Assembly: GCA_942490705.1 (NCBI GenBank)
Contig: CALNXY010000002.1
Coordinates: 103,980-167,979 of the forward strand
Origin: an uncultured Caldilineaceae bacterium
GTDB lineage: Bacteria; Chloroflexota; Anaerolineae; Caldilineales; Caldilineaceae
DNA: 64,000 bases
Direction of reading: 5' to 3'
Below, piece by piece: positions 6,748 to 23,059 of the stretch (position 1 is the stretch's first letter; the number at the start of each line of letters is the position of its first letter). The position numbers and the translations under genes are program-made. Under the pieces are notes generated by a model. The model did not search any database. It had not been told where the DNA came from and worked only from the letters and a program-made list of their open reading frames with translations.

Positions 6748-7836
6748 CTAGCGAATCTTACCGCGTGCCAGGATTGGCCAAACTGCCTCGACCACGTCAT
6801 TGCGCATGGCGTATAGATTGTCGTGCAGAACGACCGTAGTGTCTCCGTAACCGGGAACGAAATCAAAACGGTCGCCCACCTCGATCGAATCGTTCTCTTC
6901 TGTCAATGTGATGATGCCGTGTTCGGCTGACAAGACCATGTCATCTACATTCGGAATGCCGATGGGCGCCGGCGTGTTGATCCAACGCGGCAACGTCTTA
7001 AACCCGGCATCAACGATGATGCGGGTGGGTGCTGGGCAGCTGGTCACTGCGCTATGGACAAAAAGGGCCTGACGAGTTGCAACCTTCCAACCGCGATAGG
7101 TCATATCATTGAAGACTGCAGCCCCGGCCTCGATTTCAGTTATCCCGGGTTCTCGCGCCGTCATGACAAATGTTCCGCTACCGCCACAGCTGAGGATGTC
7201 AATCTCTATCCCTGCCTGCCGGCACAAATCGGCGCTCTCACGCAGTTGCCCAATCGCTTCGCTGATTGCCTGCCGCTTGGCAGACGGATCTTCGATGCCT
7301 AGCGTATGCCCTTCCCAGGTCATGAGGCCGCGCAGCTGTAGGCCAGGATAAAGGGCAATCGCTTCTGCCAGGGCAAGGGTCGCCGCCCCGGGCTGCACAC
7401 CCGCTCGGTCCATGCCCGTATTGACCTCGATTACCACTCCAATCAGAACATTGTGGGCCAAGGCGCTTGCGTTCAATCCGGCTAACGTGGCCGTGCTGTC
7501 AATGGCCACCTTTACATCGGTCGTGCGACAGAGGCTTGCCAGGCGAGCATACTTACGCTCCCCCACGATCTGATTGGCGATCAGCATGTCGCGTACCCCG
7601 GCAGCGGCCATCACCTCGGCCTCTCCCAGCTTGGCGCAGGTCAGCCCTATGGCGCCGGCGCGAAGGAGCATGTGGGCAATGGCTGGAACCTTGATCCCTT
7701 TAATATGCGGTCGCCAGTTGACGCCATTTTCGCGAAAATAGGCGGCGAGCTGGGCGATATTCTCCTCCAGCGCATCCAGATCCACCCACAAGAACGGCGT
7801 GTCAACCTCTGACTTATTCAGACCAACTTCGCTCAC
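6748..7836 (-). CDS. DSD1-family PLP enzyme (D-serine dehydratase-like / D-threonine aldolase-like, alanine-racemase N-terminal fold)
   Basis: 362-aa ORF. The WRPHIKGIK segment carries the candidate PLP lysine. The C-terminal ...GDRFDFVPGYGDTTV... resembles the D-serine dehydratase-like domain. Confidence 0.7.
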   Translation of the reverse strand: MSEVGLNKSEVDTPFLWVDLDALEENIAQLAAYFRENGVNWRPHIKGIKVPAIAHMLLRAGAIGLTCAKLGEAEVMAAAGVRDMLIANQIVGERKYARLASLCRTTDVKVAIDSTATLAGLNASALAHNVLIGVVIEVNTGMDRAGVQPGAATLALAEAIALYPGLQLRGLMTWEGHTLGIEDPSAKRQAISEAIGQLRESADLCRQAGIEIDILSCGGSGTFVMTAREPGITEIEAGAAVFNDMTYRGWKVATRQALFVHSAVTSCPAPTRIIVDAGFKTLPRWINTPAPIGIPNVDDMVLSAEHGIITLTEENDSIEVGDRFDFVPGYGDTTVVLHDNLYAMRNDVVEAVWPILARGKIR

Positions 7837-7851
7837 AGTGTAGCTCCTCGC

Positions 7852-8868
7852 TTACGCGTCCAGGAGACGCATTGCATTCCAGTAGAAGATATCGTTGATC
7901 TGGCTTCTGGCCAATTTGAGACGCCAGCACGCCAACCGCAATGCCCGCAATGACTCCAACCCGATCAGCACGGGCTGCAGTGTCGCGTGCTTTTCGTCCA
8001 AATCGAGTTCATCATGATATATCCAATGAAACGAGTCGCCAATGGCCACACAGCGGCCGCGCAGGTGGCTGACGGGGAAATCGGTGCCGTACAGAAGGCG
8101 CTCATGGCCCATGACATCGACGATTGCCTCGAACGCCCCCGCTTCGGTGACCGCAGACGTGTCGAACCAGACATTTTGTAAGCCCCGTAGGCTGTGGATG
8201 CCCTCGATCGTATGCCAGGGATTGAAGCCGCGGGCCGCATGAGCCAGAATGAGACGCATGTTGGGGTACCGCTCGCAGGAGCGTCGAATGGCGGCCTGGT
8301 TCATCGGATCGGCCAAGGCTCGATCACGCACCATATGGAGCGTAACCGTCAGCCCTTCCTGGTGTGCGAACTGCATCTGTGCTTCCGGTAGATAGGCTTC
8401 GATCGGCGCTTCAAAGGTCGGACCATTCACTTCTGCCATGGTGTGATAGCATTTTAACCCGACCATCCGCTCTCCGCTGAGGCCGGCCTTGATCGTGTCC
8501 GGGTCGTCGCTCGGCGCGATAACCAACTGGCCGAAACAGCGACGCCGAAAGGCCTCATCGATCTCTGGGGAATCAATTTCTGCACGGACGAAGGCATTGT
8601 TGCCCGCTCGATCCCCGAGAAAGGCCAGTCCGAAAAAGAGTCCACCCTTGGTCCGACCCTCCGGGTGCAGCCAGTCCATATAGCGATGATAGGCCGTCAT
8701 GTCGAGTCTCTCGGGCATCTTTGCGAGACTTGACGGCACGTTGCCGTCAGGGTAATGGACATGGGCGAAGAGGTGAGCGTGAGCGTCGAAAATTTGGTCC
8801 GGTAGAAAATCGGCTAAATCGCGTCTGTAGAATTCACGGTCTGCTGCATTCTGTTGCCAAATCGGCAT
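7852..8868 (-). CDS. Amidohydrolase_2 family metal-dependent hydrolase (lactonase/decarboxylase-type)
   Basis: 338-aa ORF with DAHAHLF (HxH), LAHAARG and GTDFPV motifs typical of the COG3618/COG2159 amidohydrolases. Confidence 0.65.
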   Translation of the reverse strand: MPIWQQNAADREFYRRDLADFLPDQIFDAHAHLFAHVHYPDGNVPSSLAKMPERLDMTAYHRYMDWLHPEGRTKGGLFFGLAFLGDRAGNNAFVRAEIDSPEIDEAFRRRCFGQLVIAPSDDPDTIKAGLSGERMVGLKCYHTMAEVNGPTFEAPIEAYLPEAQMQFAHQEGLTVTLHMVRDRALADPMNQAAIRRSCERYPNMRLILAHAARGFNPWHTIEGIHSLRGLQNVWFDTSAVTEAGAFEAIVDVMGHERLLYGTDFPVSHLRGRCVAIGDSFHWIYHDELDLDEKHATLQPVLIGLESLRALRLACWRLKLARSQINDIFYWNAMRLLDA

Positions 8869-8871
8869 GGC

Positions 8872-9951
8872 TTATTTGCTCCATGCATCTGTCAGGACGC
8901 GCACCCAATTGCCGTGGGCAATGGCGGCGATATCGTGCTCGTCGTAGCCGCGCGCGCGCAGCAGATTGGGGATACGTTGCAGATCAGCGATCGTATCCAG
9001 GTCCTTGGGTGATTGTTCACGTCCAAAGCCGCCGTCCAAATCGCTGCCGATGGCGGCGTGGCGGCTGTTGCCCGCCAGCTGGCAGACATAGTCGATGTGA
9101 TCGACAACGGTATCGAGCGTCACGTCTGCGTTGTCATGATCCAGGCCAGACCAGTCGGGTTTCAGCATCCACGCATCAAACGCGGCGCCGATGACGCCGC
9201 CCCGGGCGATGATTGCCCGTAGTTGATCATCGCTGAACTGACGTTGATTAGGCACCAGGGCGCGACAGTTGTTATGAGAAGCCAATACGGCTCCATGATA
9301 ATGCTCCAACGCTTCCCAAAACGCTTGATCCGACAGATGGGTCAAATCAAGCAAGACGCCCAAGCGATCCATCTCGCGCAGCAGCGGCGGACCGAGGTCG
9401 GTCAGACCAAGCTCGGTCCCGGTTCCGCCCGCGTAGCGTCCGGGGCCGTAATGGGTCGGTCCAAGCAGCCGTAGCCCCAGTTCCCACCACTCGGCCAACT
9501 GATCCGGTGTCAAAATCGGATCGGCCCCCTCCATACTCAGGACGAATCCCAATGGCGGCGCCGGAGCCGACAGATCCTGCCCCGCCTCCCATTCTCGCCA
9601 TGCATCCATGTGGGTCGCAAGCCCTGCGCCCTCTTCAACGATACGAATGTGCCCCATCTGTGCGAGCGCACGATAGTAGGCGAGCTGACCGCGTGCGATG
9701 CCAAATGACTGCGCAGGCGCCGCAAAGTCGACATGGGCCACCGGGCGTCCGGTAGAGCGCGCCAGCAGGGTCGCAAAGGAGAGCGCAACCCTGCCCTGGC
9801 GCATCTCCGGCAAGGCCACGGTGTTGACGCCACGGCCTTTGCCCTCCATCGCCTGTTCTTGCGTACGGATCGTGTAGACTGACTCCAGCAGATTGCGATT
9901 CCACTGCAGTGCATTCCATGCGAGATCGAGATGAGCATCAATAAGCAGCAT
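8872..9951 (-). CDS. Membrane (renal-type) dipeptidase, peptidase family M19
   Basis: The ORF 8872..10095 was trimmed to the internal ATG at 9951 (MLLIDAHLDLAWN), which removes the overlap with the upstream SDR gene. Motifs IDAHLD, ASHNNCRAL..NQRQFSDDQL and GSDLDGGFG fit M19. Confidence 0.75.
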   Translation of the reverse strand: MLLIDAHLDLAWNALQWNRNLLESVYTIRTQEQAMEGKGRGVNTVALPEMRQGRVALSFATLLARSTGRPVAHVDFAAPAQSFGIARGQLAYYRALAQMGHIRIVEEGAGLATHMDAWREWEAGQDLSAPAPPLGFVLSMEGADPILTPDQLAEWWELGLRLLGPTHYGPGRYAGGTGTELGLTDLGPPLLREMDRLGVLLDLTHLSDQAFWEALEHYHGAVLASHNNCRALVPNQRQFSDDQLRAIIARGGVIGAAFDAWMLKPDWSGLDHDNADVTLDTVVDHIDYVCQLAGNSRHAAIGSDLDGGFGREQSPKDLDTIADLQRIPNLLRARGYDEHDIAAIAHGNWVRVLTDAWSK

Positions 9952-10024: not shown

Positions 10025-10828
10025 CTACCAGGCAGTCCAGCCACCGTCGACGAGGATATTCTGCCCGGTGATGTAGCTGCCGGCATCACTAGCAAGGAGC
10101 ACCGTCACCCCCTTTAGCTCTTCAGGCAGCCCCATGCGTCTCAGAGGAACTCTGGTTTCAAGTCCCTCGATAAAGTCTGGCATGCCTTCCTTTACCCGTT
10201 GCGACGGAAATGGACCCGGGCTGATGGTGTTTACCCGAATACCGTCAGCGGCCCAATAGGCGGCAAGGTGCCGCGTCAGGTGCACAATGCCGCCTTTGAG
10301 GCCGTGATAGGTGGGCGGGCTGTTGATCTCTTGATCGATGTAAGCATCGGGATAGCTGGCCACGACGCCGTACATGCTGCCGATATTGATGATCGAACCG
10401 GAGGCCTGTCGCTCGCGTAGATGAAAAACAACCTCTCGCGCCAGCATGAAATAGGCCGTTACACCGGTGTGGTAGGCGCTGTCGAAGTCGGCTGCAGTGG
10501 CCGTGTCAATGCTTGGCGCGGTGCCGCCGTAGGCATTGTTTATGAGAATGTCGATACGTGACGTGCGCTCGACGATTCCCGCGACCAGCGCTGGAATGGA
10601 GTCGGTGTCGTTCTGTTCAAACTCCAGACCGAAATGACCATTCCCCGGTAGCGTCGCGGCAAACTCGGCAGCCTGCGCGGCCGATCGACTGGTAGCGACG
10701 ACGCGCGCGCCGGCTTCAGCCAGGGCGCGGCTCATGGCCGACCCGAGCCACCCTGCCGCGCCGGTGACGACGGCAACTCTACCATGCAAATTAAAGAGAT
10801 CATGGATCGAACGTTCGTTGGTCTGCAT
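10025..10828 (-). CDS. Short-chain dehydrogenase/reductase (SDR)
   Basis: 267 aa. VVTGAAGWLGSA cofactor motif, NNAY, and an S...YxxxK-type region (YHGLKGG). Confidence 0.85.
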   Translation of the reverse strand: MQTNERSIHDLFNLHGRVAVVTGAAGWLGSAMSRALAEAGARVVATSRSAAQAAEFAATLPGNGHFGLEFEQNDTDSIPALVAGIVERTSRIDILINNAYGGTAPSIDTATAADFDSAYHTGVTAYFMLAREVVFHLRERQASGSIINIGSMYGVVASYPDAYIDQEINSPPTYHGLKGGIVHLTRHLAAYWAADGIRVNTISPGPFPSQRVKEGMPDFIEGLETRVPLRRMGLPEELKGVTVLLASDAGSYITGQNILVDGGWTAW

Positions 10829-10863: not shown

Positions 10864-11658
10864 CTACTCGTCCGCGTCCGGGATGCGCAAGCCAAGCACA
10901 TAGCCGCCGTCCACACGCAATGTCGCGCCGGTGATATAGTCTGCTTCATCACTGGCGAGAAACGCCACAGCGTTGCCGATATCTTCGGGCGTGCCAAGCC
11001 GTTGCCACGGCATGCGCTTGGCTCCGGCGCGAATCTCTTCGTCGGTGGCAAAGGCGCGTTCGCCCGGCGTGTCGATCCAGCCTGGGTTGATGATATTGAC
11101 ATTGACGTGATTGCCGGTCAATTCTGCCGCCAACGTCGCGCCAAAATGATTGATCGCAGCCTTGGACATGTTGTAGGCCGCGCTGGTCGGTACCGCCAAC
11201 TCGGCATGCACTGAACTGATGAGCACGATCTTGCCGGCACTGCGACCGCGCTGCTCTTGCTCTACCATTTGGCGTGCCGCAAACTGGCAGGTATGAAAGA
11301 CGCCGAACTGGCTGACGGCAACCGTGCGCTCGACGCCGGCCCAATCTGCCTCAACAACAGGTTCACGTACCGAGACCGCGGCATTGGCGACGGCTATGTC
11401 AATTCGCCCAAAATGCTCTACGGTTCCGGCAACCATTGCCTCCACCGCACTGCGATCGGCAACATCTGCGCGCCAGAGGAGCGCGCGGCGACCGAGGGCA
11501 GCGACGGCATCAGCAACTTCCTGGGCTTCCTCGGGATGGGTACGATAGTGGACAACAACATCGGCCCCGTCTGCGGCAAGGCGGAGTGCGATACCGCGCC
11601 CAATTCCACGCGAAGCGCCTGTGACGAGTGCGATTCGACCGTCAAAACGATTTGTCAT
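10864..11658 (-). CDS. Short-chain dehydrogenase/reductase (SDR)
   Basis: The ORF was trimmed to MTNRFDGRIALVTGASRGIGRG (ATG at 11658). It has the classical TGxxxGIG motif, NAA, and YNMSKAA (YxxxK). Confidence 0.85.
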   Translation of the reverse strand: MTNRFDGRIALVTGASRGIGRGIALRLAADGADVVVHYRTHPEEAQEVADAVAALGRRALLWRADVADRSAVEAMVAGTVEHFGRIDIAVANAAVSVREPVVEADWAGVERTVAVSQFGVFHTCQFAARQMVEQEQRGRSAGKIVLISSVHAELAVPTSAAYNMSKAAINHFGATLAAELTGNHVNVNIINPGWIDTPGERAFATDEEIRAGAKRMPWQRLGTPEDIGNAVAFLASDEADYITGATLRVDGGYVLGLRIPDADE

Positions 11659-11692
11659 ACGATCCCTTTCCAATGAAGGCGAATAGAGATGC

Positions 11693-11711
11693 TGGTCTGG
11701 TAATAGGACCA
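11693..11711. promoter_or_regulatory. Operator-like imperfect palindrome TGGTCTGGTAATAGGACCA
   Basis: It lies 35 nt upstream of the minus-strand SDR operon start. Its reverse complement begins TGGTCCTAT, the same 9-mer as the site at 16762. Confidence 0.4.
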
Positions 11712-11872
11712 CTATGCCACATGGGTCAAATCAATGTCAATCCGCAAAAAATCATGCGGACGTTTGGTGTGAAACCGGGGACGCTCTGCTTGGTGACAGT
11801 CATTTCCCGGGGGGACAAGTTCCGTTTGGGGCGGCCCCCAAAATGGGGCAAATCGCTGGAAAATCGCGCCCA

Positions 11873-11901
11873 TTGACACTTGTCTGGTATTGCGGTACTG
11901 T
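11873..11901 (+). promoter_or_regulatory. Sigma-70-type promoter for the aminotransferase operon
   Basis: TTGACA (11873..11878), 17-nt spacer, TACTGT (11896..11901). It sits about 100 nt upstream of the ATG at 12008. Confidence 0.5.
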
Positions 11902-11912
11902 AACCGTACCAG
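11884..11912. promoter_or_regulatory. Operator-like nested palindrome CTGGTA-N17-TACCAG (inner GGTAC-N7-GTACC)
   Basis: Read directly. It overlaps the spacer and -10 of the promoter above. The GGT..ACC half-sites fit GntR/FadR-type operators. Confidence 0.4.
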
Positions 11913-12007: not shown

Positions 12008-13369
12008 ATGGCGGTGCAATCCATGAATCACTTGACAGATTATCCCGATGTCAGCGGTTCCTTAGCCGCCTATGCCAAAGCGGGGCGACTGATTCCGGGT
12101 TGGACGCAACTGATTAGTCGGCGCGCTGATCAGTTCGCCAATGGCGTTAGCCCCATCTATGCGCAGCGCGCCAAGGGGTCCCGTTTTGTCGACGTGGATG
12201 GGAACGAATACATTGATTGGGTGAACGCCGTTGGCGCCATTATTCTCGGCCACGCCGATGATGTGGTTGACGGCGCTGTGAAAGAGCAGATTGACCGCGG
12301 TAGCCTCTATACGCTCAACAGCCTCCTGGAGATTGAACTCGCTGAAGAATTGGTTGCGACCATCCCCAGCGCAGAGATGGTGCGCTACACCAAAGGAGGG
12401 GGCGAAGCGTGTGCGGTTGCAATCCGTATCGCCCGCGGCATAACGGGACGCGACAAAGTGCTCGTTTGCGGCTATCACGGCTGGCACGATTGGTATCAGG
12501 CCGCAAATTTTGGCGTCGATCCCGACAGCGGCGCCTACCCCTTTGCCGGCATTGAACCGACTGGCGTCCCCCGAGCGTTGGCAGATACGGTCCTCCCCTT
12601 TTCGTACGGCAATCTCGACATGCTCAAGCGCGTGCTCCTGGAAAATCGCGGCGAGGTCGCCGCGATCATGATGGAGCCTGCCCGTTCCGAACTCCCGCCG
12701 CCCAGCTATCTTGAAGGCGTACAGTCGTTGGCCGGCGAGCACGGCGTCATCCTGATCTTCGACGAAGTTTCCTGTGGCTGGCGGCTCGCAATTGGCGGCG
12801 TGCAGCAGGCGGTAGGCGTTACGCCGGACATGACGGTCGTGGCCAAGGCGATGTCAAACGGCTATGCAATGGGCGCCGTGGTCGGCGCACGGAGGGCCAT
12901 GGCGCCCGCCGCCAGAATGTTCATTTCCAGCTCGTACTGGAGCGACAATATTGGGCTGGCTGCGGCGCTCACAACGATTCGTGAGCTCAAGCGGCGCGAT
13001 GCCGAGGCTCGCTTTCGCGAGATTGGTGAACTGCTGCGTACCGCGCTGAACGATGCCCTTACCGCAGCCGGTCTTGCCGGCGCATGCGTTGGGCTATATA
13101 CCAATCCCTATCTGCAAATCACGCTGCCGGACGATAGCTTGCGGCCCAAAGTGAATACCCTCTTCGTGCAGGAAATGGCGCGGCGCGGCATTCACTGTCT
13201 GCCATCGTTCAAGGCCACGCTCGCACATACGCCGCGTGATATCGAGCAGACAGCGGCCGCGGCCTACGAGACGTTTCGCATTATTCGCCACGGTCTTGAA
13301 GCCGAGCGACTGGATGATCTGCTGGTTGCCGATCTGAAGAAAGAACCCTTTCGTCGTCAGGTACGCTGA
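12008..13369 (+). CDS. Class-III (HemL-like) PLP aminotransferase/aminomutase family protein
   Basis: The ORF 11714..13369 was trimmed to the ATG at 12008, because the upstream 98 codons overlap a promoter-like region. GYHGWHDWY, DEVSCGWR and VVAKAMSNGY (candidate PLP Lys) are typical of glutamate-1-semialdehyde aminomutase-like enzymes. Confidence 0.8.
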   Translation: MAVQSMNHLTDYPDVSGSLAAYAKAGRLIPGWTQLISRRADQFANGVSPIYAQRAKGSRFVDVDGNEYIDWVNAVGAIILGHADDVVDGAVKEQIDRGSLYTLNSLLEIELAEELVATIPSAEMVRYTKGGGEACAVAIRIARGITGRDKVLVCGYHGWHDWYQAANFGVDPDSGAYPFAGIEPTGVPRALADTVLPFSYGNLDMLKRVLLENRGEVAAIMMEPARSELPPPSYLEGVQSLAGEHGVILIFDEVSCGWRLAIGGVQQAVGVTPDMTVVAKAMSNGYAMGAVVGARRAMAPAARMFISSSYWSDNIGLAAALTTIRELKRRDAEARFREIGELLRTALNDALTAAGLAGACVGLYTNPYLQITLPDDSLRPKVNTLFVQEMARRGIHCLPSFKATLAHTPRDIEQTAAAAYETFRIIRHGLEAERLDDLLVADLKKEPFRRQVR

Positions 13370-13391
13370 AGCGCGATGGGACGATATCCTC

Positions 13392-14336
13392 GTGAAGAAC
13401 TCCAAAACACGTTATCCGCAAGCGATCCTTGTCTCCTGCGAAATTCCATGGGATGGGAGCGAGGCGTTGCTGGAAGATGTCTTTCGGCGTGAGGTGCGCC
13501 ATGTGTTGGCTCACTTTTCTCACCTCTATATCTTTGGCACCGCCGGTGAAGGCTATGCTGTCGACATGGCACGCTTTCGGCGGATAGTTGAGATTTTCTA
13601 CGCTGAAACCCGAGGAACCGGCGTCCATCCCATGGTCGGCGTTATTGGACTATCGACGGCAAATGTGGTCGAGCGACTTGCGCATGCGTATGCCGTCGGA
13701 TTTCGCACCTTTCAAATCTCACTGCCGGCATGGGGAGCGCTCAATGATCATGAATTGATGACCTTCTTTACCGATGTCTGCGGCTCGTTTCCAGCGGCAA
13801 ATTTCTTACACTACAACCTTCCCCGTGCGCAGCGCGTATTGACCGGCTCCGACTATCGCCGTCTTGTCGACGCAGTCCCCAACTTGGTGGCGACCAAGAA
13901 TACCGGTGGCGGTATCGCGAGGGCGACCGACCTCATGCGCAATGTGCCCGAGCTTCAGCACTTTTTTGGCGAAGCGAACTTTCCCTTTGGCTGCATGGAG
14001 GGCGAGTGCTCGTTGCTCGCATCGCTCGGGCCGATGACGCCGCAGAAGGTCTGGGCCTTTTTTGATGCCGGTCGTGCAGGCCGTTGGGACGAATGCTTCC
14101 GGCTGCAAAAGGGGCTACGCGATCTCCAGGGCAACGTGCTTGGGCCATTGTTTAGCCAACCACATCGATATATGGACGGCGCTTATGACAAAGTCCTCAA
14201 GCGTCTGGGCGGATTCGAGGAGATGCCGCTGAGTCTGCTTTCGCCCTATCAAGGTGTCAGTGAAGAAGCGTATCAGGAGTGCCGTGACATATTGTATACG
14301 CAGTACCCGGATTGGATCGCGTCCGATTTGGCGTGA
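13392..14336 (+). CDS. DapA/N-acetylneuraminate-lyase family (class I pyruvate aldolase-like) protein
   Basis: 314 aa with a GTG start. FGTAGEG (GTTGE-like) and VATKNTGG (candidate Schiff-base Lys) resemble the DHDPS/NAL family, but the sequence is divergent. Confidence 0.65.
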   Translation: MKNSKTRYPQAILVSCEIPWDGSEALLEDVFRREVRHVLAHFSHLYIFGTAGEGYAVDMARFRRIVEIFYAETRGTGVHPMVGVIGLSTANVVERLAHAYAVGFRTFQISLPAWGALNDHELMTFFTDVCGSFPAANFLHYNLPRAQRVLTGSDYRRLVDAVPNLVATKNTGGGIARATDLMRNVPELQHFFGEANFPFGCMEGECSLLASLGPMTPQKVWAFFDAGRAGRWDECFRLQKGLRDLQGNVLGPLFSQPHRYMDGAYDKVLKRLGGFEEMPLSLLSPYQGVSEEAYQECRDILYTQYPDWIASDLA

Positions 14337-14466: not shown

Positions 14467-15246
14467 ATGCAAAAAAGCCGAATTCTTCAGAAACTGCGTA
14501 GTGGAAAGACAACGCTGACCACGAGCAATAGTGCATATACATCCCCGCGCATTGCCGAAATGGTCGGGCTGCTCGACTTCGACGCTCTTTGGATTGACAT
14601 GGAGCATCAAGACTACGACTACAACCAGGTTTTCAACATGGCTTTGGCCTGTCGTGCCACCGGCCTTGACCCACTGGTTCGCATCCGCAAGGGTGATTAT
14701 TGGTCGTATTCACGGGCCTTTGAAGCGGGCGCCATCGGCATTATGGTGCCCCACTGCAAGTCCGGCGAGGAGGCCAAACAGATCGCCCGCGCTTCGCGTT
14801 TTTCGCCGTTGGGCATGCGCGGGCTGGATGGGGTCGAAGCGAGTGCGGATTATGGACTGGCGCCCATGGCTGAGTACATGGCTCATGCCAATCAAGAGAC
14901 CTTTGTTGTCGTACAGATCGAAGATGCGGAAGCAGTGGAGGACATCGATGCCATTGCCGCCACTGAAGGCATTGACGTGCTCTTCATTGGGCCGGCCGAT
15001 CTGAGCCAGAGCTTCGGCATTCCGCTGCAGATCGATCATGCGCTGATGCGGACGGCAGCCGCGCGCGTGGCCGAAGCCGCGGCTCGGCATGGCAAGTGGT
15101 GGGGCATCCCTGTAGCGACCGCACAACAGGGGGCCGAATACTATGAACTCGGCGCGCGTTTTCTTGCTTCGGGATCGGCCATCAGCATTCTTCGCCAAGG
15201 CTATATGGCGCTGCGGTCAGACTTTGATGAATTGCTGCAGCGCTGA
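14467..15246 (+). CDS. HpcH/HpaI family aldolase (2-keto-3-deoxy-acid aldolase type)
   Basis: The ORF 14254..15246 was trimmed to the ATG at 14467 (MQKSRILQKLRSGK). ...FDALWIDMEH..., VRIRKGD, MVPHCKSGEEA and FSPLGMRG are characteristic of HpcH/HpaI/RhmA aldolases. Confidence 0.8.
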   Translation: MQKSRILQKLRSGKTTLTTSNSAYTSPRIAEMVGLLDFDALWIDMEHQDYDYNQVFNMALACRATGLDPLVRIRKGDYWSYSRAFEAGAIGIMVPHCKSGEEAKQIARASRFSPLGMRGLDGVEASADYGLAPMAEYMAHANQETFVVVQIEDAEAVEDIDAIAATEGIDVLFIGPADLSQSFGIPLQIDHALMRTAAARVAEAAARHGKWWGIPVATAQQGAEYYELGARFLASGSAISILRQGYMALRSDFDELLQR

Positions 15247-16733: not shown

Positions 16734-16762
16734 TTGACATATCTACAGGTGCGTGGTATTTT
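16734..16762 (+). promoter_or_regulatory. Sigma-70-type promoter of the GntR/FadR regulator gene
   Basis: TTGACA (16734..16739), 17-nt spacer, TATTTT (16757..16762). It sits about 80 nt upstream of the ATG at 16841. Confidence 0.55.
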
Positions 16763-16780
16763 GGTCCTATAAGAGTACCA
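16762..16780. promoter_or_regulatory. Operator-like imperfect palindrome TGGTCCTATAAGAGTACCA (candidate autoregulatory site)
   Basis: 14 of 19 positions are self-complementary. It overlaps the -10/+1 region of the regulator's promoter. Confidence 0.45.
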
Positions 16781-16840
16781 CTGGGGAATCTGCCCACTTT
16801 GGCCGCCATCGTTGATTCTTAGGAACACGATCTGTACGCA

Positions 16841-17554
16841 ATGCTGAAACCACTTGCGCGCGAAACACTGACTGTCCAGGCAACCGATACGCTGCGGCGC
16901 TTCATTTTGACAGAGGAACTCGGTGCTGGGTTCCAACTACCTAGCGAACGCGAGTTGAGTGAGATCCTCTCGGTAAGCCGCAACATCGTGCGCGAGGCGC
17001 TCAGCGTTCTGGTCGCGGAGAAACTGATTGTTAAGCGCGCAGGGCGGGGAATCTTTGTCACAGATTTTGACCGCTCCGCAATCATGCCCAAGATCGCGTT
17101 GACGGTCGACTATGACGGCCAGGATCTCAGTGCGCTGGCGGAAGCACGTGCTGTGGTTGAGCTTGGCGCCGTGGACTTGATGACCGAACGGATTCGGGCA
17201 GACCAATTTGCTGCGCTCACAGCCATCAACAAGTCGCTGGCGGAGAACCTGAGCACCGGGCGCAGTACCATCAGGTACGATATCGACTTCCACACAGTAT
17301 TGTTCGAATCGACCCACAATGCGGTGATCATTGATCTGATTCCATTACTGGTTGAGTTTTTTCGCCTATCGGTGATGCACCGGCCAATGACGATTCTACA
17401 CAACGCCGAGCGAATCATCGATGAACATCAACGCATTATCGATGCACTGAAGAGCAAAGAGCCGGCCGCAGTGCGCGACGCCCTGGTTACGCATCTGTAC
17501 CCAACGGATATCTCTGCGCCCGAGTCCGCGTGGCTAGCCATTGCTAACGAGTAA
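16841..17554 (+). CDS. GntR family transcriptional regulator, FadR subfamily
   Basis: 237 aa. It has an N-terminal winged HTH (LPSERELSEILSVSRNIVREAL) and an all-helical FCD-type C-terminal domain. Confidence 0.85.
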   Translation: MLKPLARETLTVQATDTLRRFILTEELGAGFQLPSERELSEILSVSRNIVREALSVLVAEKLIVKRAGRGIFVTDFDRSAIMPKIALTVDYDGQDLSALAEARAVVELGAVDLMTERIRADQFAALTAINKSLAENLSTGRSTIRYDIDFHTVLFESTHNAVIIDLIPLLVEFFRLSVMHRPMTILHNAERIIDEHQRIIDALKSKEPAAVRDALVTHLYPTDISAPESAWLAIANE

Positions 17555-17688: not shown

Positions 17689-18612
17689 ATGACGATGATT
17701 CGCGGGATCTTGCCCGCGCTGCTCACACCCATGAATGAGGATGGGTCGGAGGTTAACTATGGGGCGTTGTCGGGACTGGTCGAGCGCCATCTGGCAGCAG
17801 GCGTTGACGGCTTCTTCGTCTGTGGTGGATCGGGCGAGGGGCTGCTGTTGCGGCCCGAAGAGAGGCGTGCGATTCTCGGAAATGTTGTGGAACAGGTCGG
17901 TGATCGGGCAGTGATCATTGCCCACGTAGGTGCAATGGCAACGCAAGATGCCGTGGCGCTGGCTGCCCACGCTGCAAGCTTGAATGTAGCCGCCATCGCC
18001 GCGGTCCCGCCGATCTACTTTCGGGTAGACGATGACGCCCTTTGTGAACACTACCGCCTGATCGGTGATGCCGCACCCCGTACGCCCCTATGGGTCTACC
18101 AAATTCCAAGTGCAACCGGCGTCAATATCAACATGACCAAAATGACGCGGCTGCTTGAGACCGGCAACGTCTCCGGGATAAAGTATTCGTCCTACGATCT
18201 TTATGACATGGCCAACATACTGGCGCTGCCCCAGTCCGTCAATGTGCTGTCGGGCTTTGATGAAGTACTGGTTGCCGCGCTCAGCATGGGCGCACACGGC
18301 GCCATCGGCAGTACGTACAACGTGTTGCCTACGACCTTTGTCCGCCTCTATCGGACAGCGCAGGCCGGTGACTGGGCCGAGGCGCAAGCCCTGCAAAAGC
18401 GTGCCAATCGCGTCATTCAGGCACTCTTGACAGCCCCATTGATGGCTGGACTGAAGGCAATCCTAACCGATCAGGGGATTCCCTGTGGCGTCCCGCGGCG
18501 ACCAATTCCTGCACTCGATGCGGAAACGATCCGGGCGTACCTGCAACGGGTCAATGCGGCTGGGCTGAGCGATTTGGAGGCTGAGTCACGCCAACTCATC
18601 GCAACGCCATGA
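17689..18612 (+). CDS. DapA/N-acetylneuraminate lyase family protein
   Basis: The ORF was trimmed to the ATG at 17689, which follows GGAGAGG. GILPALLTPM, CGGSGEG, YQIP and GIKYSS (Schiff-base Lys context) are typical of NAL/DHDPS enzymes. Confidence 0.8.
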   Translation: MTMIRGILPALLTPMNEDGSEVNYGALSGLVERHLAAGVDGFFVCGGSGEGLLLRPEERRAILGNVVEQVGDRAVIIAHVGAMATQDAVALAAHAASLNVAAIAAVPPIYFRVDDDALCEHYRLIGDAAPRTPLWVYQIPSATGVNINMTKMTRLLETGNVSGIKYSSYDLYDMANILALPQSVNVLSGFDEVLVAALSMGAHGAIGSTYNVLPTTFVRLYRTAQAGDWAEAQALQKRANRVIQALLTAPLMAGLKAILTDQGIPCGVPRRPIPALDAETIRAYLQRVNAAGLSDLEAESRQLIATP

Positions 18613-18755
18613 TCGATGGATGACGCGTATTGACTGGCCCATCCGCCGGTGGCTTTTTGTTCAAATAGGTTGACCGCACGTGAAAGGGATGGCACTTGCG
18701 TCGCGGAATGATTACGCTGTACAGACTATTGTTCGTTTGATCAACAAGGAGATGC

Positions 18756-20147
18756 ATGATGAAGATTCGCGCACCAATTGTTGGACTATTTGTGCTGATG
18801 CTGTTCCTGCTTGCGGGCTGCACTGCGCCGGCGGCGGCCCCTGCTCCCGCGGCCGACGCTGATGCGGAAGTCAGTGAGGAAATGATGGATGAAGAGGTCA
18901 CGCTCGTCTACTGGGCCGATCCGCGCTTCCAGTTTGTCCAGGGCCTGGAAGACGAAACCCAAGAAGTTGGTGACTATGAGCAGATTCTGGCCGAGCGCTT
19001 CATGGAGATGCATCCCAACGTCACGATTGAGGTTGAGACGCTGGCTTGGGAAGAGCTGTCCACCAAGGTCGCGGCTGCCATCGCTGCCGGCGCAGCCCCG
19101 GATGTGCTTAAGGATTACCTGGGTCGTACCTCTGCTTACGCCAATCAAGGCTTGCTGGAGCCGTTGCAGGACGCAATCCCTGCAGAAGAGTATGAAGATT
19201 ACCTGCCGAGCCTGGTTGACCTCTATACCATCAACGATGAGTTACACGGTCTGCCCCTCTTCTTCTGGGTAACGCACATGTATGGCAATCAGGCCCCCTT
19301 TATGGAAGCCGGCGCCGAAGCGCTCCTGCCCGATAGCGAAACAGGCGCCTGGACTTTCGAACAGTTCGAAGAGGCGATGGCGGCAATGGCCGTTGCCGAC
19401 GAACGCTGGCCGGTGGGTCTCCAGGTCGGGAGTGAGCAGGGTGACTACAATGTGCTTGGTTTCTTCTGGGGTATGGGGGCAGAACTCTATGAAGACGGCG
19501 ACTACACCCGTAGCGCACTCAACAGCCCGGAAGGCGTCGCTGCGCTAACGAAGCTAGTCGAATGGTACGATGCTGGATATATCATTCCTGGCGCCACGAC
19601 CATGATTGGCGAGGATGTCAATAATGCGATGTACCTTGGACAGTCCGTCATCGCGGGCGGAGGCCTGAGTTCGCTGCCCGTTGCCGAAGCCGCCCAACAG
19701 GAAGGCCGCGTCACCGTCGATTGGGATCCGTTTATTTCGCTTTATCCTTCTGCTGAGGGCGTTTCGTCGGGCGGCATGGCGGCAGGTCCAACGGGCGCAG
19801 TCGTCTTCAAGCAGGATGATCCGGTCAAGCGTGAGTGGGCCATCGAATTCGCCCGCTTCCTGGCGTCTCCGGAACTGCAGGTCGAATATGCCGTCAATTC
19901 CAACCAGTTTCCCTCGCGCCTTTCCGTGCCGAACCCGTTCGAAGGCAACCCTGATTTCACCCGTGTCAATGCCTGGATTCAAGAGCATGGTGTTGAAGAC
20001 ATGGGTCTGAGTTCGCCAACCTATGCTGAGGTACGCGTGCTATTGCAGCCGGAACTGCAAGCCGCGTTGCTCGGCGCCAAAACGCCTGAAGAGGCGTTGG
20101 CCGACTACGAAGAAAAAGCGAATGCCGTCTTGGCAAGAGATCAGTAG
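18756..20147 (+). CDS. ABC transporter extracellular solute-binding lipoprotein (family 1, CUT1 sugar type)
   Basis: 463 aa. AAGGAG RBS. Signal peptide with lipobox LLAGC followed by an Ala/Pro/Glu-rich linker. It lies directly upstream of two MalF/MalG-type permease genes. The start could be 18759. Confidence 0.85.
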   Translation: MMKIRAPIVGLFVLMLFLLAGCTAPAAAPAPAADADAEVSEEMMDEEVTLVYWADPRFQFVQGLEDETQEVGDYEQILAERFMEMHPNVTIEVETLAWEELSTKVAAAIAAGAAPDVLKDYLGRTSAYANQGLLEPLQDAIPAEEYEDYLPSLVDLYTINDELHGLPLFFWVTHMYGNQAPFMEAGAEALLPDSETGAWTFEQFEEAMAAMAVADERWPVGLQVGSEQGDYNVLGFFWGMGAELYEDGDYTRSALNSPEGVAALTKLVEWYDAGYIIPGATTMIGEDVNNAMYLGQSVIAGGGLSSLPVAEAAQQEGRVTVDWDPFISLYPSAEGVSSGGMAAGPTGAVVFKQDDPVKREWAIEFARFLASPELQVEYAVNSNQFPSRLSVPNPFEGNPDFTRVNAWIQEHGVEDMGLSSPTYAEVRVLLQPELQAALLGAKTPEEALADYEEKANAVLARDQ

Positions 20148-20165
20148 TTACGATCCACGCATAGA

Positions 20166-20209
20166 CTGTGGGAGGCGGTCGAAGCGGCATGCATTGCCGC
20201 CTCCCACAG
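20166..20209 (+). promoter_or_regulatory. Intercistronic stem-loop after the solute-binding-protein gene
   Basis: A perfect 13-bp stem, CTGTGGGAGGCGG / CCGCCTCCCACAG, with an 18-nt loop, 19 nt after the stop at 20147. No U-tract follows. Confidence 0.6.
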
Positions 20210-20310
20210 ATTGCTGAAACATTCGCCCGCGTGAATAGCGGACGATCCCTCCGTACTGGCAATTTGCCTGAGTTCATGGTTGACGAACGAATCAGGAGTC
20301 TTCCCTCGCC

Positions 20311-21192
20311 ATGACAACGCTCATTAATGAAATCTGGAAAGAGCGCTGGGCCTATCTTTTTTTGCTGCCGGCGCTGATTCCATTCTTTGCGTTTATACTC
20401 TGGCCTCTGATGGCGGGGCTGCGGCTGAGCCTCTATGACGCGCAGCTGGTGGACCGGACCTTTATCGGTTTTGGCAACTTCGTCGAGCTTGCCAACGATG
20501 AAGCGTTTCGAATGGCAGTTAGAAATACCTTCTTCTTCGTGCTCGGCGTCGTGCCGGTGACCGTAACGCTCTCGCTCTTCCTGGCGCTTGTGATTTTCCC
20601 CATGCGTTCGGGCGCGCAAGGCTTTTTTCGCATGGCCTTCTATCTGCCTGTGGTTGCGTCGGGCGTGGTGTTGACGATGGTCTGGCTCTACATCTTCAAT
20701 CCGACTTACGGCTTGCTCAATTATCTATTGAGTCTGATCGGCATCGAACGCATCGCATGGCTCGGACTGATTGAGACCGCGTTGCCGTCCCTGGCCATTG
20801 TGGTGATCAGCTGGACGATTGGGGTTCCGGTCATTCTTTTTATTGCCGGTCTCGCCGGCATCCCTGAATCGCTCTACGACGCCGCCCAGATCGATGGCGC
20901 CAATGCCCTGCAGGAGCTCTGGTATGTGACCTTGCCGCTCTTGCGCCCGACAGTTCTTTTCATTTTGGTGACCCAAACGATTGGCGTCTTTCAAGTCTTC
21001 GTTGTTGTACTCCTAATGACCAGGGGGGGACCGGCAAATTCCACCCAGACCATCGTCTATCGAATCTATGAAACGGCGTTCACGTTCTTTCGCTTTGGCT
21101 ATGCATCTGCCATGGGTGTTGTATTGTTACTTATCGTGAGCATTGTTGCTGCGGCGCAGTTCAAGCTACTTGGTGAAGAGGTTCAATACTAA
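20311..21192 (+). CDS. Carbohydrate ABC transporter permease (MalF-like)
   Basis: 293 aa with six predicted TM segments and an EAA-type loop (DAAQIDGANALQELWYVTLPLLRP). Confidence 0.9.
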   Translation: MTTLINEIWKERWAYLFLLPALIPFFAFILWPLMAGLRLSLYDAQLVDRTFIGFGNFVELANDEAFRMAVRNTFFFVLGVVPVTVTLSLFLALVIFPMRSGAQGFFRMAFYLPVVASGVVLTMVWLYIFNPTYGLLNYLLSLIGIERIAWLGLIETALPSLAIVVISWTIGVPVILFIAGLAGIPESLYDAAQIDGANALQELWYVTLPLLRPTVLFILVTQTIGVFQVFVVVLLMTRGGPANSTQTIVYRIYETAFTFFRFGYASAMGVVLLLIVSIVAAAQFKLLGEEVQY

Positions 21193-21193
21193 G

Positions 21194-22102
21194 ATGGCAG
21201 AAAATTCCACGAGTGGAGCGATACCGAGCGTACCGGAAGCCGCATATCCGGATTCCAAACGAAGTCTGTGGTCATGGGCTGGCCGAGGCTTCTGGCTCCT
21301 GACCGTCCTGGCGACCATTTTGCTTGCACTCCTCTCACTGCTCCCACTCTACTGGATGATCATCGGGTCCTTCAAAATTCAGACAAACGCAATGGCCGTG
21401 CCGCCAGAATTCTGGCCGTCAAACCCGACGCTTGAGAACTGGGAACGGCTGCTTTTCGGCAGCAGCCCCACGTGGCGCTGGTTCGCAAATAGCTTCGTCG
21501 TTGCCTCACTGTCAGCTATGTTTGCCGTCTTGACCAGTGCCCTGGCCGGGTATTCGTTTGGCAAGAAGGTATTTCCTGGGCGCAATTTTCTCTTTTGGCT
21601 GATCATTATCACGATGATGCTCCCCAAACAGATCTCGCTCATTCCGCTCTTTATTCTGATGCGCAGACTTGATTGGTTTAACACTTATCAGGGGCTGATT
21701 GTGCCATGGGTTGCCTATCCTTTTGGGATCTTTCTCTTCAAGCAATATATGCAGTCCATCCCCAGTGAGTTGCTCGATGCTGCGCGCATAGATGGCGCCG
21801 GCGAGTTGCGCACCTTCTTCGGCATTGTGCTTCCCCTCTCTAAACCGGCGGTTGGCGCACTGGCGATCTTTGCCTTTGTCGCGGCCTGGAATGATTTTCT
21901 TTGGCAGTTGATTCTGGTCACAAAAGAGACCATGTTTACGCTGCCGGTAGGCGTCTCCAAATTGGTTAGCTCGCTGACCAGCTTCAATCTGGGCCTGGCT
22001 ATGGCCGGCGCAACGTTCGCTTTTGTCCCGATGCTCATCGTCTTTCTGCTCTTCCAAGATTACTTTGTCAAAGGCATTACGCTCGGCGGCGTTAAGGGGT
22101 AG
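21194..22102 (+). CDS. Carbohydrate ABC transporter permease (MalG-like)
   Basis: The ORF was trimmed to the ATG at 21194, immediately after the previous stop. EAA loop: DAARIDGAGELRTFFGIVLPLSKP. Confidence 0.9.
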   Translation: MAENSTSGAIPSVPEAAYPDSKRSLWSWAGRGFWLLTVLATILLALLSLLPLYWMIIGSFKIQTNAMAVPPEFWPSNPTLENWERLLFGSSPTWRWFANSFVVASLSAMFAVLTSALAGYSFGKKVFPGRNFLFWLIIITMMLPKQISLIPLFILMRRLDWFNTYQGLIVPWVAYPFGIFLFKQYMQSIPSELLDAARIDGAGELRTFFGIVLPLSKPAVGALAIFAFVAAWNDFLWQLILVTKETMFTLPVGVSKLVSSLTSFNLGLAMAGATFAFVPMLIVFLLFQDYFVKGITLGGVKG

Positions 22103-22108
22103 AGACCG

Positions 22109-23059
22109 ATGATCTATCGTACACTGGGACGAACCGGGCTGCGCGTCTCTGCGCTGGGACTGGGCACCGTCGAACTCGGTTTGGACTATGGGATCGATGC
22201 CCCGGGCGACTTCGGTCGCCCGACGGAATCGGACGCCATTCGGCTTGTCCACGCTGCGCTGGATGCCGGAATTAGCTTTGTCGATACCGCGCGCGCCTAT
22301 GGCGAGAGTGAACGCATACTCGGCCTTGCGCTTGCCAGGCGCCGTGCGGATGTAGTGATTGCCACCAAGGTTGATCCGCGTCGCGCCGATGGCAGCGTGC
22401 TGGAAGGCAATGCATTGCGGCGCTTCATGCAAGAGTCGCTGCAGACCAGCCTGCGGCTTCTCGGCACGGACTATGTCGACGTTTGGATGTTGCACAGCAT
22501 GGACGCTGCGCTCTTGCGCCAGAACGAGATTGTCGCTGAGGTTTTCGACGATGCGCGTCGGCGCGGTCAAATTGGGTGGACCGGCGCGTCTTTCTATGGC
22601 GTGGAGCTGCCCGAAGCAGCACTCAAGCATGATCTCTTCGACGTCATGCAGGTCACTTACTCCGTGCTTGATCAACGACTGAATGAACGGGTATTTCCCC
22701 TGGCCGCCGAGCAGAACGTCGGGATCGTCGTGCGTTCGATCTTGCTCAAAGGCGCCCTGACCGAGCGCGCCGAGCACCTCCCCCCCCGCCTAGAATTGTT
22801 ACGGACACGTTCACGGGAGTTCCGTGCATTATTGACGGCATCCAACGACGAGATGACTCCGGCCCAGGGGGCCATTCTCTTTGGTCTGGCCAATCCGCAT
22901 ATTGATACAGTTCTTGTCGGTGTTCGCACCGAAGCGGAGCTTGCAGAGGATGTTTCCGCCATGGAGATGCAGCTCTCCCCGCAGGAACTAACTGAGCTTC
23001 AAACGCTTGCGGTCGATGATGAATCCTTATTGGATCCCAGCACTTGGGGGCTTCCCTAA
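22109..23059 (+). CDS. Aldo/keto reductase
   Basis: 316 aa. LGRTGLRVSALGLGT, DTARAYG and DVWMLH motifs. Confidence 0.85.
   Translation: MIYRTLGRTGLRVSALGLGTVELGLDYGIDAPGDFGRPTESDAIRLVHAALDAGISFVDTARAYGESERILGLALARRRADVVIATKVDPRRADGSVLEGNALRRFMQESLQTSLRLLGTDYVDVWMLHSMDAALLRQNEIVAEVFDDARRRGQIGWTGASFYGVELPEAALKHDLFDVMQVTYSVLDQRLNERVFPLAAEQNVGIVVRSILLKGALTERAEHLPPRLELLRTRSREFRALLTASNDEMTPAQGAILFGLANPHIDTVLVGVRTEAELAEDVSAMEMQLSPQELTELQTLAVDDESLLDPSTWGLP

Follow-up and report, generated by a model that had tools for sequence, protein, structure and literature searches.

In a 64,000-nucleotide window, the whole stretch of DNA analysed here (contig CALNXY010000002.1), from the 6.6-Mb genome of an uncultured Caldilineaceae bacterium (Chloroflexota), we characterised a cluster of 14 genes spanning 16 kb (positions 6748-23059) by means of its listing of open reading frames (ORFs) and of Pfam and NCBIfam scans. 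We consider it close to shown that these genes form one regulon, because their three promoters share a 29-bp operator that is confined to the locus and recurs at orthologous promoters in other genomes. Judging from gene content and sequence, there is an even chance that this regulon is catabolic and directed at an N-acylated amino sugar, or at a sialic-acid-like 2-keto-3-deoxy sugar acid yielding one. The case for an amino sugar or amino-sugar acid as substrate, with a deacylase step ahead of the step of a pyridoxal 5'-phosphate (PLP) enzyme, is likewise about evenly balanced. The cluster follows the logic of the Ong pathway, known from the use of oxidised chitin products, with none of its components. 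An earlier interpretation of this DNA (hereafter the sequence-only reading) had proposed an undescribed oxidative, non-phosphorylative pathway for amino sugars or amino-deoxy-aldonates, and its individual claims are taken up below with the results that bear on them.

Gene organisation and a shared operator

The minus-strand operon encodes, in this order, two short-chain dehydrogenases/reductases (SDR1 and SDR2), an M19 metallo-amidase, an Amidohydro_2 hydrolase and a fold-type III PLP enzyme, separated by intergenic gaps of 35, 73, 3 and 15 nt. The divergent plus-strand operon carries a class-III aminotransferase, a divergent protein of the dihydrodipicolinate synthase (DHDPS) family, an HpcH-type aldolase and an M24 metallohydrolase; after a 430-nt spacer it is followed by a GntR/FCD regulator, an N-acetylneuraminate-lyase (NAL)-like lyase, the binding protein and two permeases of a CUT1 importer, and an aldo/keto reductase (AKR). 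All 14 genes lie where the sequence-only reading had placed them and belong to the families that it had named, Pfam and NCBIfam being in agreement, with small corrections to five start codons, which were refined from translation and orthologue lengths and shifted inward relative to the longest ORF.

An alignment of the three promoter regions reveals a shared 29-bp element, STGGYATWKYGGTMCTRTWASMRKACCAS, with 19 invariant positions. Its first copy (11692-11720) belongs to the minus operon, where promoter alignment and a sigma-70-like scan delimit a TTGACA-18-CATAGT promoter with operator at 11692..11740 on the minus strand; the second (11884-11912), found by promoter alignment, stands with a promoter-like TTGACA before the plus operon (11873..11912, plus strand), and the third (16753-16781) with a TTGACA-17-TATTTT promoter bearing a TG before the regulator gene (16734..16781, plus strand). 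In two of the three promoters the element lies directly 3' of a TTGACA-17/18-(-10) promoter, and these two are the best sigma-70-like sites in the 18 kb scanned. The consensus found no match elsewhere in the 6.6-Mb genome, even with up to 5 substitutions allowed. Across 1.84 Mb of related loci it matched 7 times at no more than 6 substitutions, and 6 of these 7 matches fall at promoters that serve orthologues of the PLP operon or of the GntR gene (loci L028, L035, L046 and L104). The element is kept beside orthologous regulators in L028, L035 and L046, and L028 carries it at both promoters, 10 kb apart. This footprint in several genomes ties the PLP operon to the unit formed by the GntR, NAL and importer genes. 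Plain clusters of TGGT...ACCA half-sites, tried as a regulon marker, proved too unspecific in genome-wide scans, and the 29-bp consensus was used instead.

The regulator (16841..17554, plus strand; PF00392 and PF07729) is of the GntR/FadR subfamily (FCD), and its nearest NCBIfam models, NanR and LldR, both score below their cut-offs. The hallmarks of a FadR-subfamily GntR regulon are present, with helix-turn-helix and FCD domains in the protein and, at the promoters under control, a palindromic operator of the TGGT...ACCA type, and the cluster's own GntR/FCD protein is presumed, from sequence, to be the repressor that binds the 29-bp operator. The proposal that the 16 kb make up one functional unit is thus borne out by the shared operator, by conserved synteny and by co-occurrence across genomes.

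A consensus scan detected a terminator-like hairpin (6643..6664, minus strand) just 3' of the last minus-operon gene, between the stop of the PLP-enzyme gene (6748) and the convergent rhaI gene. The neighbouring mtnA, which is the next gene, and the upstream rhamnose genes are outside the unit. Two further hairpins were observed within the plus-strand genes, a terminator-like one directly 3' of the NAL-like gene (18633-18652) and a strong GC hairpin 3' of the binding-protein gene (20166-20209), and these may set different transcript levels inside the unit running from the regulator to the AKR.

A Tyr-x-Asp clade of fold-type III PLP enzymes

The PLP enzyme (6748..7836, minus strand; 362 aa) belongs to the D-threonine-aldolase/DSD1 superfamily, with matches to Ala_racemase_N (PF01168, 96 bits) and D-ser_dehydrat (PF14031, 50 bits). 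The Pfam and NCBIfam scans found no enolase-type or IlvD-type aldonate dehydratase in 6748-23059, which agrees with the sequence-only reading, as does the presence of a fold-type III PLP enzyme in the place of such a dehydratase.

Lys46 aligns with the PLP lysine of the D-threonine aldolase 4v15 and is invariant in 15 orthologues, as is the motif Tyr330-Gly-Asp332. The enzyme reads GYGD where 4v15 reads SHVD, so that Tyr takes the position of the metal-binding His347, and a Gly is found at the position of the catalytic His193 of the Alcaligenes aldolase. Neither the His-x-Asp metal pair of the aldolases nor the His-x-Cys pair of the dehydratases is present, and His193 is likewise missing; an invariant WEGH motif is found, together with an invariant His177 three residues before the His193-equivalent Gly. 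The nearest PDB entries are 4v15, 7dib and 6qkb (D-threonine aldolases and BhcC; E 1e-58 to 1e-52), with 4v15 at E 1.5e-58. The match to D-threo-3-hydroxyaspartate dehydratase reaches E 1e-29 and that to chicken D-serine dehydratase (3anu) E 4.6e-13, and the BhcC equivalog model NF045642 gives 243.6 bits, below its cut-off of 690. More than 3,000 database proteins match the enzyme at E <= 1e-40.

OngC-like deaminases from a Comamonas plasmid and from Rhizobium have SHPC at the site of GYGD in the window enzyme, to which they are 26-29% identical, and orthology with OngC was rejected on this comparison. The Comamonas gene (26-27% identity, His-x-Cys) lies in a cluster with KdgK-like, RidA, ABC transporter, 'amino acid deaminase', RpiR and D-aminoacylase genes. 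A plasmid-borne homologue of Rhizobium acidisoli (L133) also carries His-x-Cys, and its gene stands between two pairs of neighbours, a sugar ABC importer with an amidohydrolase and RidA with an AstE-like deacylase; the same cluster adjoins Gfo/Idh/MocA and AP_endonuc_2 genes. Proteins of Rhizobium and Sinorhizobium annotated as 'D-TA family' are 34-35% identical to the window enzyme and carry His-x-Cys as well, and on the Rhizobium phaseoli plasmid pRphaR620c (L135) a major facilitator (MFS)-SDR-RpiR-RidA group is divergent from an M81 gene and a 'D-TA family' PLP gene. These two rhizobial clusters look like further amino-sugar-acid routes, ong-like but differently built.

On the evidence of these residues, the window enzyme falls in a third, uncharacterised clade of its superfamily, with Tyr-x-Asp in the place of the metal pair. 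Its earlier designation as DSD1-type is therefore retained for the superfamily and withdrawn for the type: the enzyme differs from the His-x-Cys kind represented by DSD1 and OngC and lies nearer to the D-threonine aldolases, so that beta-elimination is a candidate reaction. The sequence fits either beta-elimination or retro-aldol cleavage and does not decide by itself.

The second of these chemistries underlies the strongest alternative, which we nevertheless hold to be unlikely. Here the PLP enzyme would be a retro-aldolase on the same substrate class, cutting between C2 and C3 to give glycine and an aldose two carbons shorter; the AKR or SDR2 would then reduce or oxidise the aldose, and the pyruvate aldolases would serve, for example, an imported 2-keto-3-deoxy acid or the product of the aminotransferase. 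The ranking of solved relatives speaks for it, with D-threonine aldolases and 3-hydroxy-D-aspartate aldolase (1e-58 to 1e-52) ahead of the dehydratases (1e-29 and 1e-13), and yet the aldolase machinery is not intact, given the changes of the first metal ligand from His to Tyr and of His193 to Gly, and the Rhizobium His-x-Cys homologues (34-35%) are as similar to the enzyme as the aldolases are. The second metal ligand is Asp, as in the aldolases, where homologues in dehydratase or deaminase contexts have Cys. The surroundings of the gene lend further support: RidA is almost never near it, an AKR gene directly adjoins it in three loci (L037, L039 and L094), and a glycine/sarcosine-oxidase-like flavoprotein occurs in some related clusters. 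Without beta-elimination, however, there would be no source of the 2-keto-3-deoxy acids on which HpcH-type aldolases normally act in the window or in the rearranged clusters L136 and L137 described below.

Genomic context of the orthologues

The PLP enzyme has many orthologues (50-81% identity), most of them in Caldilineaceae and others in Latescibacterota, Gemmatimonadota and some Proteobacteria. Among the 24 family genomes surveyed, which are related and not independent samples, so that counts are descriptive only, the PLP enzyme occurs in 13, the M19 enzyme in 13 (11 of them shared with the PLP enzyme), the aminotransferase in 10, the Amidohydro_2 protein in 9 and the DHDPS-family (DapA-like) protein in 4, in a nested fashion; all 10 genomes with the aminotransferase (69-78% identity) hold the PLP enzyme. 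None of the core cluster genes is present in the four genomes of the same genus. The gene set is found, rearranged, in two assemblies (L136 and L137) of one relative at 77% identity, where the aminotransferase, HpcH, M24, GntR, NAL, binding-protein, two permease and AKR genes are followed by a tungsten-type aldehyde ferredoxin oxidoreductase (AFOR) and a CE7 esterase; the SDR-SDR-M19-PLP operon is convergent there, and the Amidohydro_2 and DapA-like genes are lacking. The AFOR and CE7 acetyl esterase (AXE1) genes occupy the same place between the AKR and the PLP operon in L136 (13656-16630) and in L028 (9182-12156), a hint that the pathway may end in an aldehyde and start from an O-acetylated compound. 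The aminotransferase gene is split into two ORFs in L136 and intact in L137.

Partial assemblages of the same genes recur elsewhere. In a Phototrophicaceae genome (L063), M24, DapA-like, DUF455, SDR2, Amidohydro_2, BNR_2, aminotransferase and M81 genes are divergent from the PLP gene; L037 groups NAL, AKR, PLP, SDR and GntR genes within 5.6 kb, and L040 has on one strand a CUT1 importer, an SDR, an M19 enzyme, a PHP-type hydrolase, the PLP enzyme and an AP_endonuc_2 protein. In 22 of 80 loci, the gene that immediately precedes the PLP gene is an SDR2 orthologue. In most family genomes, a PLP/M19 module and a module of HpcH, AKR, zinc alcohol dehydrogenase (Zn-ADH), Amidohydro_2 and aminotransferase genes are on different contigs. 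One contig bearing genes of the second kind (L111, G013 contig C13, 1-20000) combines Gfo/Idh/MocA, GntR, HpcH, AKR, Zn-ADH, Amidohydro_2, aminotransferase and SDR1 genes with a sarcosine/glycine-oxidase-like flavoprotein, two BNR_2 proteins, DUF455 and a LegC/PseC-like DegT aminotransferase. Transposase genes (rve, DDE_Tnp_1) and a PIN/RHH toxin-antitoxin pair adjoin the SDR-SDR-M19-PLP operon of L028 (282-2889); these, together with the absence of the core genes from the four same-genus genomes, suggest that the locus moves laterally.

A metallo-amidase recurs near the PLP gene (within 3 kb in 16 of 56 long loci), although its family varies among M19, M81/MlrC, AstE/DoeB-like and CE4. The recurring sugar-type neighbours are CUT1 permeases, AKR, Gfo/Idh/MocA and AP_endonuc_2 proteins and enolases resembling galactonate and arabinonate dehydratases; an identity of these enolase-superfamily members as dipeptide epimerases was rejected, as they are sugar-acid dehydratase-like. 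Sialidase-like BNR_2 proteins and LegC/PseC-like DegT aminotransferases appear in several related clusters. Homologous PLP enzymes stand in clusters that hold sugar ABC importers, sugar-acid dehydratases and N-deacylases, which supports the sequence-only reading on this point, and as a whole the context favours an N-acylated amino-sugar acid over free peptides.

The latter are the subject of a second alternative, quite unlikely in our view, in which the minus and plus operons would degrade D-amino-acid peptides or glyco-peptide conjugates, with the M19 and M24 proteins as true peptidases, the PLP enzyme cleaving a D-beta-hydroxy amino acid, the class-III enzyme transaminating another, and the NAL, ABC and AKR genes handling the sugar-acid part. 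M19 and M24 are indeed peptidase families, and the solved structures related to the M19 enzyme are those of dipeptidases; orthologues have genes for M55 D-aminopeptidase, M81/MlrC and Opp-type permeases in their vicinity, the aminotransferase is related to D-phenylglycine aminotransferase, and OngC itself deaminates D-Ser and D-Thr. The importers of the window and of the L040 operon are, however, of the sugar-type CUT1 family, SDR1 and SDR2 are of the types that oxidise sugars and sugar acids, the enolase-superfamily neighbours point to sugar acids and not to dipeptides, and L037 brings together NAL, AKR, PLP, SDR and regulator genes without a recognised peptidase.

Enzymes of the two operons and of the import unit

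SDR1 (10864..11658, minus strand), whose start is the ATG at 11658 with GGAAAGGGA upstream, is of the aldose 1-dehydrogenase type. It scores 224.7 against the 'glucose 1-dehydrogenase' model NF005559, above the cut-off of 215, which is evidence at the family level, and 181 bits against L-rhamnose 1-dehydrogenase Lra1, below the cut-off. SDR2 (10025..10828, minus strand) resembles sugar-acid dehydrogenases of the gluconate 5-dehydrogenase/KduD kind (PRK08213, 197 bits, below cut-off), with the gluconate 5-dehydrogenase 1vl8 as its best PDB match. Both proteins speak for a sugar character of the cluster.

The M19 enzyme (8872..9951, minus strand; 359 aa; renal-dipeptidase type, PF01244, 192 bits), with its start codon placed at MLLIDAHLD, is the proposed N-deacylase and, by analogy, would act on a D-configured 2-acylamino acid. 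Next to it, the Amidohydro_2 protein (7852..8868, minus strand; 338 aa; Pfam 45 bits, a weak score) is a candidate lactonase. Its HxH motif (H30, H32), His178, His210 and Asp263 are invariant among orthologues. A sequence search against the PDB gave no match, and an AlphaFold2 model (pLDDT 87) retrieved 4DO7 and 4DLF as top Foldseek matches, the first being the cog3618 amidohydrolase BmulJ_04915 (TM 0.62/0.72, 15% identity), with E-values near those of decarboxylases and LigY. BmulJ_04915 is the L-fucono-1,5-lactonase, and a lactonase role is possible for the window protein. In seven relatives (L036, L040, L043, L053, L074, L077 and L081), the slot of about 1 kb between the M19 and PLP genes is taken by a PHP/CehA-McbA-type metallohydrolase (about 300 aa), so that unrelated hydrolase families hold the same position. 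The Amidohydro_2 gene mostly travels with the aminotransferase gene and is adjacent to it in G006, G013, G015 and G020. Many of its orthologues are named 'glutamate-1-semialdehyde 2,1-aminomutase' by JGI, which is the family of the neighbouring aminotransferase; this looks like annotation carry-over or a sign of fused forms. Of the lactonase assigned by the sequence-only reading, the family is thus kept and the role weakly assignable, the gene being missing from the closest syntenic clusters.

The plus operon opens with the class-III, glutamate-1-semialdehyde-aminomutase (GSAM)-like PLP aminotransferase (~12023..13369, plus strand, start alternatively at 12008; ~448 aa; PF00202), which is related in NCBIfam and the PDB to GSAM, D-phenylglycine aminotransferase and aminoglycoside C-6' aminotransferases. 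The following DapA-like protein (13392..14336, plus strand; PF00701, 42 bits, weak) is a divergent member of the DHDPS/NAL superfamily, of class I aldolase or dehydratase type, which keeps the GTAGE (GxxGE) motif, Tyr141 and the lysine motif VATKNTGG. The HpcH/GarL-type class II pyruvate aldolase (14467..15246, plus strand; 259 aa; PF03328), one of the proteins whose start was refined, scores 147 bits against GarL, 137 against HpaI and 95 against 2-keto-3-deoxy-L-rhamnonate aldolase in NCBIfam, all below cut-off. The M24 metallohydrolase of creatinase/prolidase fold (15268..16410, plus strand; PF00557 and PF01321, Creatinase_N), proposed as a second deacylase, stands immediately upstream of the regulator in L136 and L137 too.

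Beyond the regulator, the NAL-like class I aldolase (17689..18612, plus strand; DHDPS/NAL family) scores 240.7 against PRK04147 (cut-off 281) and 195.9 against TIGR00683 (cut-off 382), below both cut-offs, while all of its top PDB matches are NALs. Aligned with E. coli NanA (PDB 3lcg as reference, numbering offset 22), it keeps Tyr137, the Schiff-base Lys165, Asp191, Glu192 and Ser208 and differs by S47/T48 to G/S, L142 to A and F252 to M. The CUT1-type importer (18756..22102, plus strand) consists of an SBP_bac_1/8 binding protein (18756-20147), whose PDB relatives are sugar-binding proteins, and two BPD_transp_1 permeases (20311-21192 and 21194-22102, the second with a refined start); the scans found no ABC ATPase gene in the cluster, which corrects the earlier description. 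The last gene encodes the AKR (22109..23059, plus strand; PF00248, 161 bits), an aldehyde reductase or aldose 1-dehydrogenase candidate, whose orthologues (45-63%) adjoin the PLP gene or the Amidohydro_2, aminotransferase and HpcH genes in other genomes.

The host genome (G000) contains a second NAL paralogue, which has a BNR_2 gene as its neighbour (C3:370474-374669), a NanE homologue (C14:4935-5519) and a weakly similar aminotransferase/HpcH/SDR/CUT1 cluster (C18:172871-188245). Conventional sialic-acid handling may thus run in parallel within this genome, and the C18 cluster and the C3 paralogue yielded nothing decisive for the function of the cluster studied here. Two other identities were tried and rejected. 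Catabolism of hydroxyproline or collagen peptides would call for a proline-racemase-like epimerase or an aldehyde dehydrogenase, neither of which is in the cluster, and the importer is sugar-type; degradation of ectoine or hydroxyectoine (DoeA/B/D-like) fits neither the M24 protein, with 26-38 bits against ectoine hydrolase, nor the GSAM-like aminotransferase, nor the types of transporter and regulator.

A putative route and its alternatives

In the route that we propose, the CUT1 system would import the compound and, if this is a nonulosonate, the NAL-like lyase would release pyruvate and leave an N-acyl-hexosamine. SDR1, or the AKR, would oxidise C1 to a lactone, which would open spontaneously or through the Amidohydro_2 enzyme to a 2-acylamino-2-deoxy-aldonate, in other words an N-acyl-alpha-amino-beta-hydroxy acid. 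The M19 amidase would then strip the acyl group, the part played by OngB in the Ong pathway, and the Tyr-x-Asp PLP enzyme would take off the amino group by alpha,beta-elimination, as OngC does, giving a 2-keto-3-deoxy acid. The HpcH enzyme, the DHDPS-like enzyme or both would split this acid without phosphorylation into pyruvate and a small aldehyde, of which the AKR (or SDR2) would dispose. The non-phosphorylative ending is suggested by the lack of a 2-keto-3-deoxygluconate (KDG) kinase and the presence of three pyruvate-type aldolase-like enzymes and an AKR. The class-III aminotransferase, HpcH and M24 genes could form a parallel branch for deacylation and transamination of a C2 epimer or of a second amino group; speculatively, the minus operon would handle acids with a D-configured C2 (gluco/galacto-type) and the aminotransferase-HpcH-M24 branch the manno-type epimer, L-configured at C2, that a sialic-acid lyase would leave. 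The oxidative non-phosphorylative sugar route of the sequence-only reading is therefore one that the gene content resembles, every step being inferred. The M19 and M24 peptidases, which had been set aside there as not fitting the scheme, find a place in it as proposed N-deacylases, the more so as a metallo-amidase recurs by the PLP gene.

Several observations weigh against this route. The nearest solved relatives of the PLP enzyme are aldolases, and its identity to the OngC-like deaminases is 26-29%, without their His-x-Cys pair. RidA stands beside PLP orthologues in 1 of about 80 loci, a rarity that makes it uninformative as a marker of dehydratase chemistry; the three RidA genes of the host genome are on other contigs, none being in the cluster. 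About half of the 56 long loci have no partner family near the PLP gene. The Amidohydro_2 assignment is weak (45 bits, no PDB sequence match), and the gene is absent from L136 and L137, with a PHP-type hydrolase filling its slot in relatives. M19 enzymes are, to our knowledge, known as dipeptidases and not as N-acetyl deacylases. Lastly, orthologues of the NAL and binding-protein genes were found in none of 40 relatives searched, from which we infer that the import and lyase front end is variable and the core shared.

A more specific variant, very unlikely in our estimate, is that the regulon degrades a di-N-acylated diamino sugar acid, either a 5,7-diamino nonulosonate of the pseudaminic or legionaminic type or the bacillosamine-like 2,4-diacetamido-2,4,6-trideoxyhexose that forms its core. 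We know of no breakdown pathway for such compounds. The NAL-like lyase would free the hexose, SDR1 and the lactonase would lead to the aldonate, and M19 and M24 would strip the two acyl groups; the PLP enzyme would then take the 2-amino group and the class-III aminotransferase the 4-amino group, a step that would fall to a LegC/PseC-like DegT enzyme in relatives. The product would be 5-hydroxy-2,4-dioxohexanoate or 2-keto-3-deoxy-rhamnonate, and SDR2, HpcH and AKR would finish as in the non-phosphorylative rhamnose pathway, so that nearly every gene of the cluster would be employed.

That two or three unrelated catabolic modules lie together here by chance, as the separate contigs of the PLP/M19 and Amidohydro_2/aminotransferase/HpcH/AKR modules in most family genomes and the missing NAL and binding-protein orthologues might suggest, is highly improbable in view of the locus-specific 29-bp operator at all three promoters and its retention at orthologous promoters elsewhere, of the rearranged but whole set in L136 and L137, and of the nested occurrence of the genes across genomes.

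Comparison with known systems

The closest precedent for the amino-sugar-acid route is the Ong pathway of Pseudoalteromonas prydzensis for oxidised chitin products, in which N-acetylglucosaminate (GlcNAc1A) is converted to glucosaminate (GlcN1A) by OngB, of the D-aminoacylase type, then to KDG and NH3 by OngC, and to KDG-6-P by KdgK (Jiang et al. 2022, Nat Commun 13:5899, PMC9537276). OngC is a fold-type III PLP enzyme that also deaminates D-Ser and D-Thr (PMC9537276). RidA is essential in this route. PLP-dependent deamination of a 2-amino-2-deoxy-aldonate after N-deacylation has thus been demonstrated for GlcNAc1A, and a pathway of this logic can no longer be called undescribed. Our literature search, covering glucosaminate dehydratase, galactosaminate and mannosaminate pathways and fitness-based assignments, turned up the Ong papers alone, and we found no paper tying the Tyr-x-Asp clade or this type of cluster to a substrate.

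In both systems, a 2-acylamino-2-deoxy-aldonate would be handled as an N-acyl-D-amino acid, first by a metallo-amidase and then by a fold-type III PLP enzyme leading to a 2-keto-3-deoxy sugar acid, and in both the cluster is repressor-controlled with a dedicated importer. Yet no component is orthologous: the window has an M19 enzyme for the D-aminoacylase, a GntR/FCD regulator for MurR/RpiR and a CUT1 ABC importer for the SSS symporter and TonB receptors, and its PLP enzyme has 362 aa against 415 aa in OngC. Pfam and NCBIfam scans detected no OngB-type D-aminoacylase, OngD RidA, KdgK or MurR/RpiR among the 14 genes. To this set the window adds SDRs, which would oxidise the compound inside the cell, together with the M24 protein, a class-III aminotransferase, an AKR and three pyruvate-type aldolase-like enzymes.

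With the non-phosphorylative L-rhamnose and L-fucose pathways and those of the archaeal Entner-Doudoroff type, the cluster has in common an SDR aldose 1-dehydrogenase, a possible cog3618-like lactonase, HpcH/DHDPS-type aldolases, an aldehyde-handling oxidoreductase and the lack of a kinase. It departs from them in having no enolase- or IlvD-type dehydratase and, instead, two PLP enzymes and two metallo-amidases, which imply nitrogen-bearing substrates. The likeness of the PLP enzyme to D-threonine aldolase and BhcC comprises the two-domain fold-type III architecture, the PLP lysine and the best similarity to any solved protein, whereas Tyr for His347, Gly for His193, the WEGH motif and the sugar- and deacylase-type context set it apart. 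The order of an FadR/FCD regulator, a NAL-like gene and a CUT1-type importer recalls the nan clusters (NanR-NanA-transporter); unlike these, the window cluster lacks NanK, NanE, NagA and NagB (the NanE homologue being elsewhere, on C14) and has oxidative genes downstream.

Implications

If the amino-sugar-acid route holds, oxidative catabolism that treats an amino sugar as a D-amino acid would not be confined to marine Gammaproteobacteria, and Chloroflexota would possess a modular scheme rebuilt from non-homologous parts, as, to go by related loci, would Latescibacterota, Gemmatimonadota and Rhizobiaceae. The route would also offer a testable reason for the occurrence of M19, M24 and M81 'peptidases' in sugar clusters, and a first functional handle on the large Tyr-x-Asp clade of fold-type III PLP enzymes. 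The regulon is compact and its operator clean, and the effector of its regulator would name the substrate.

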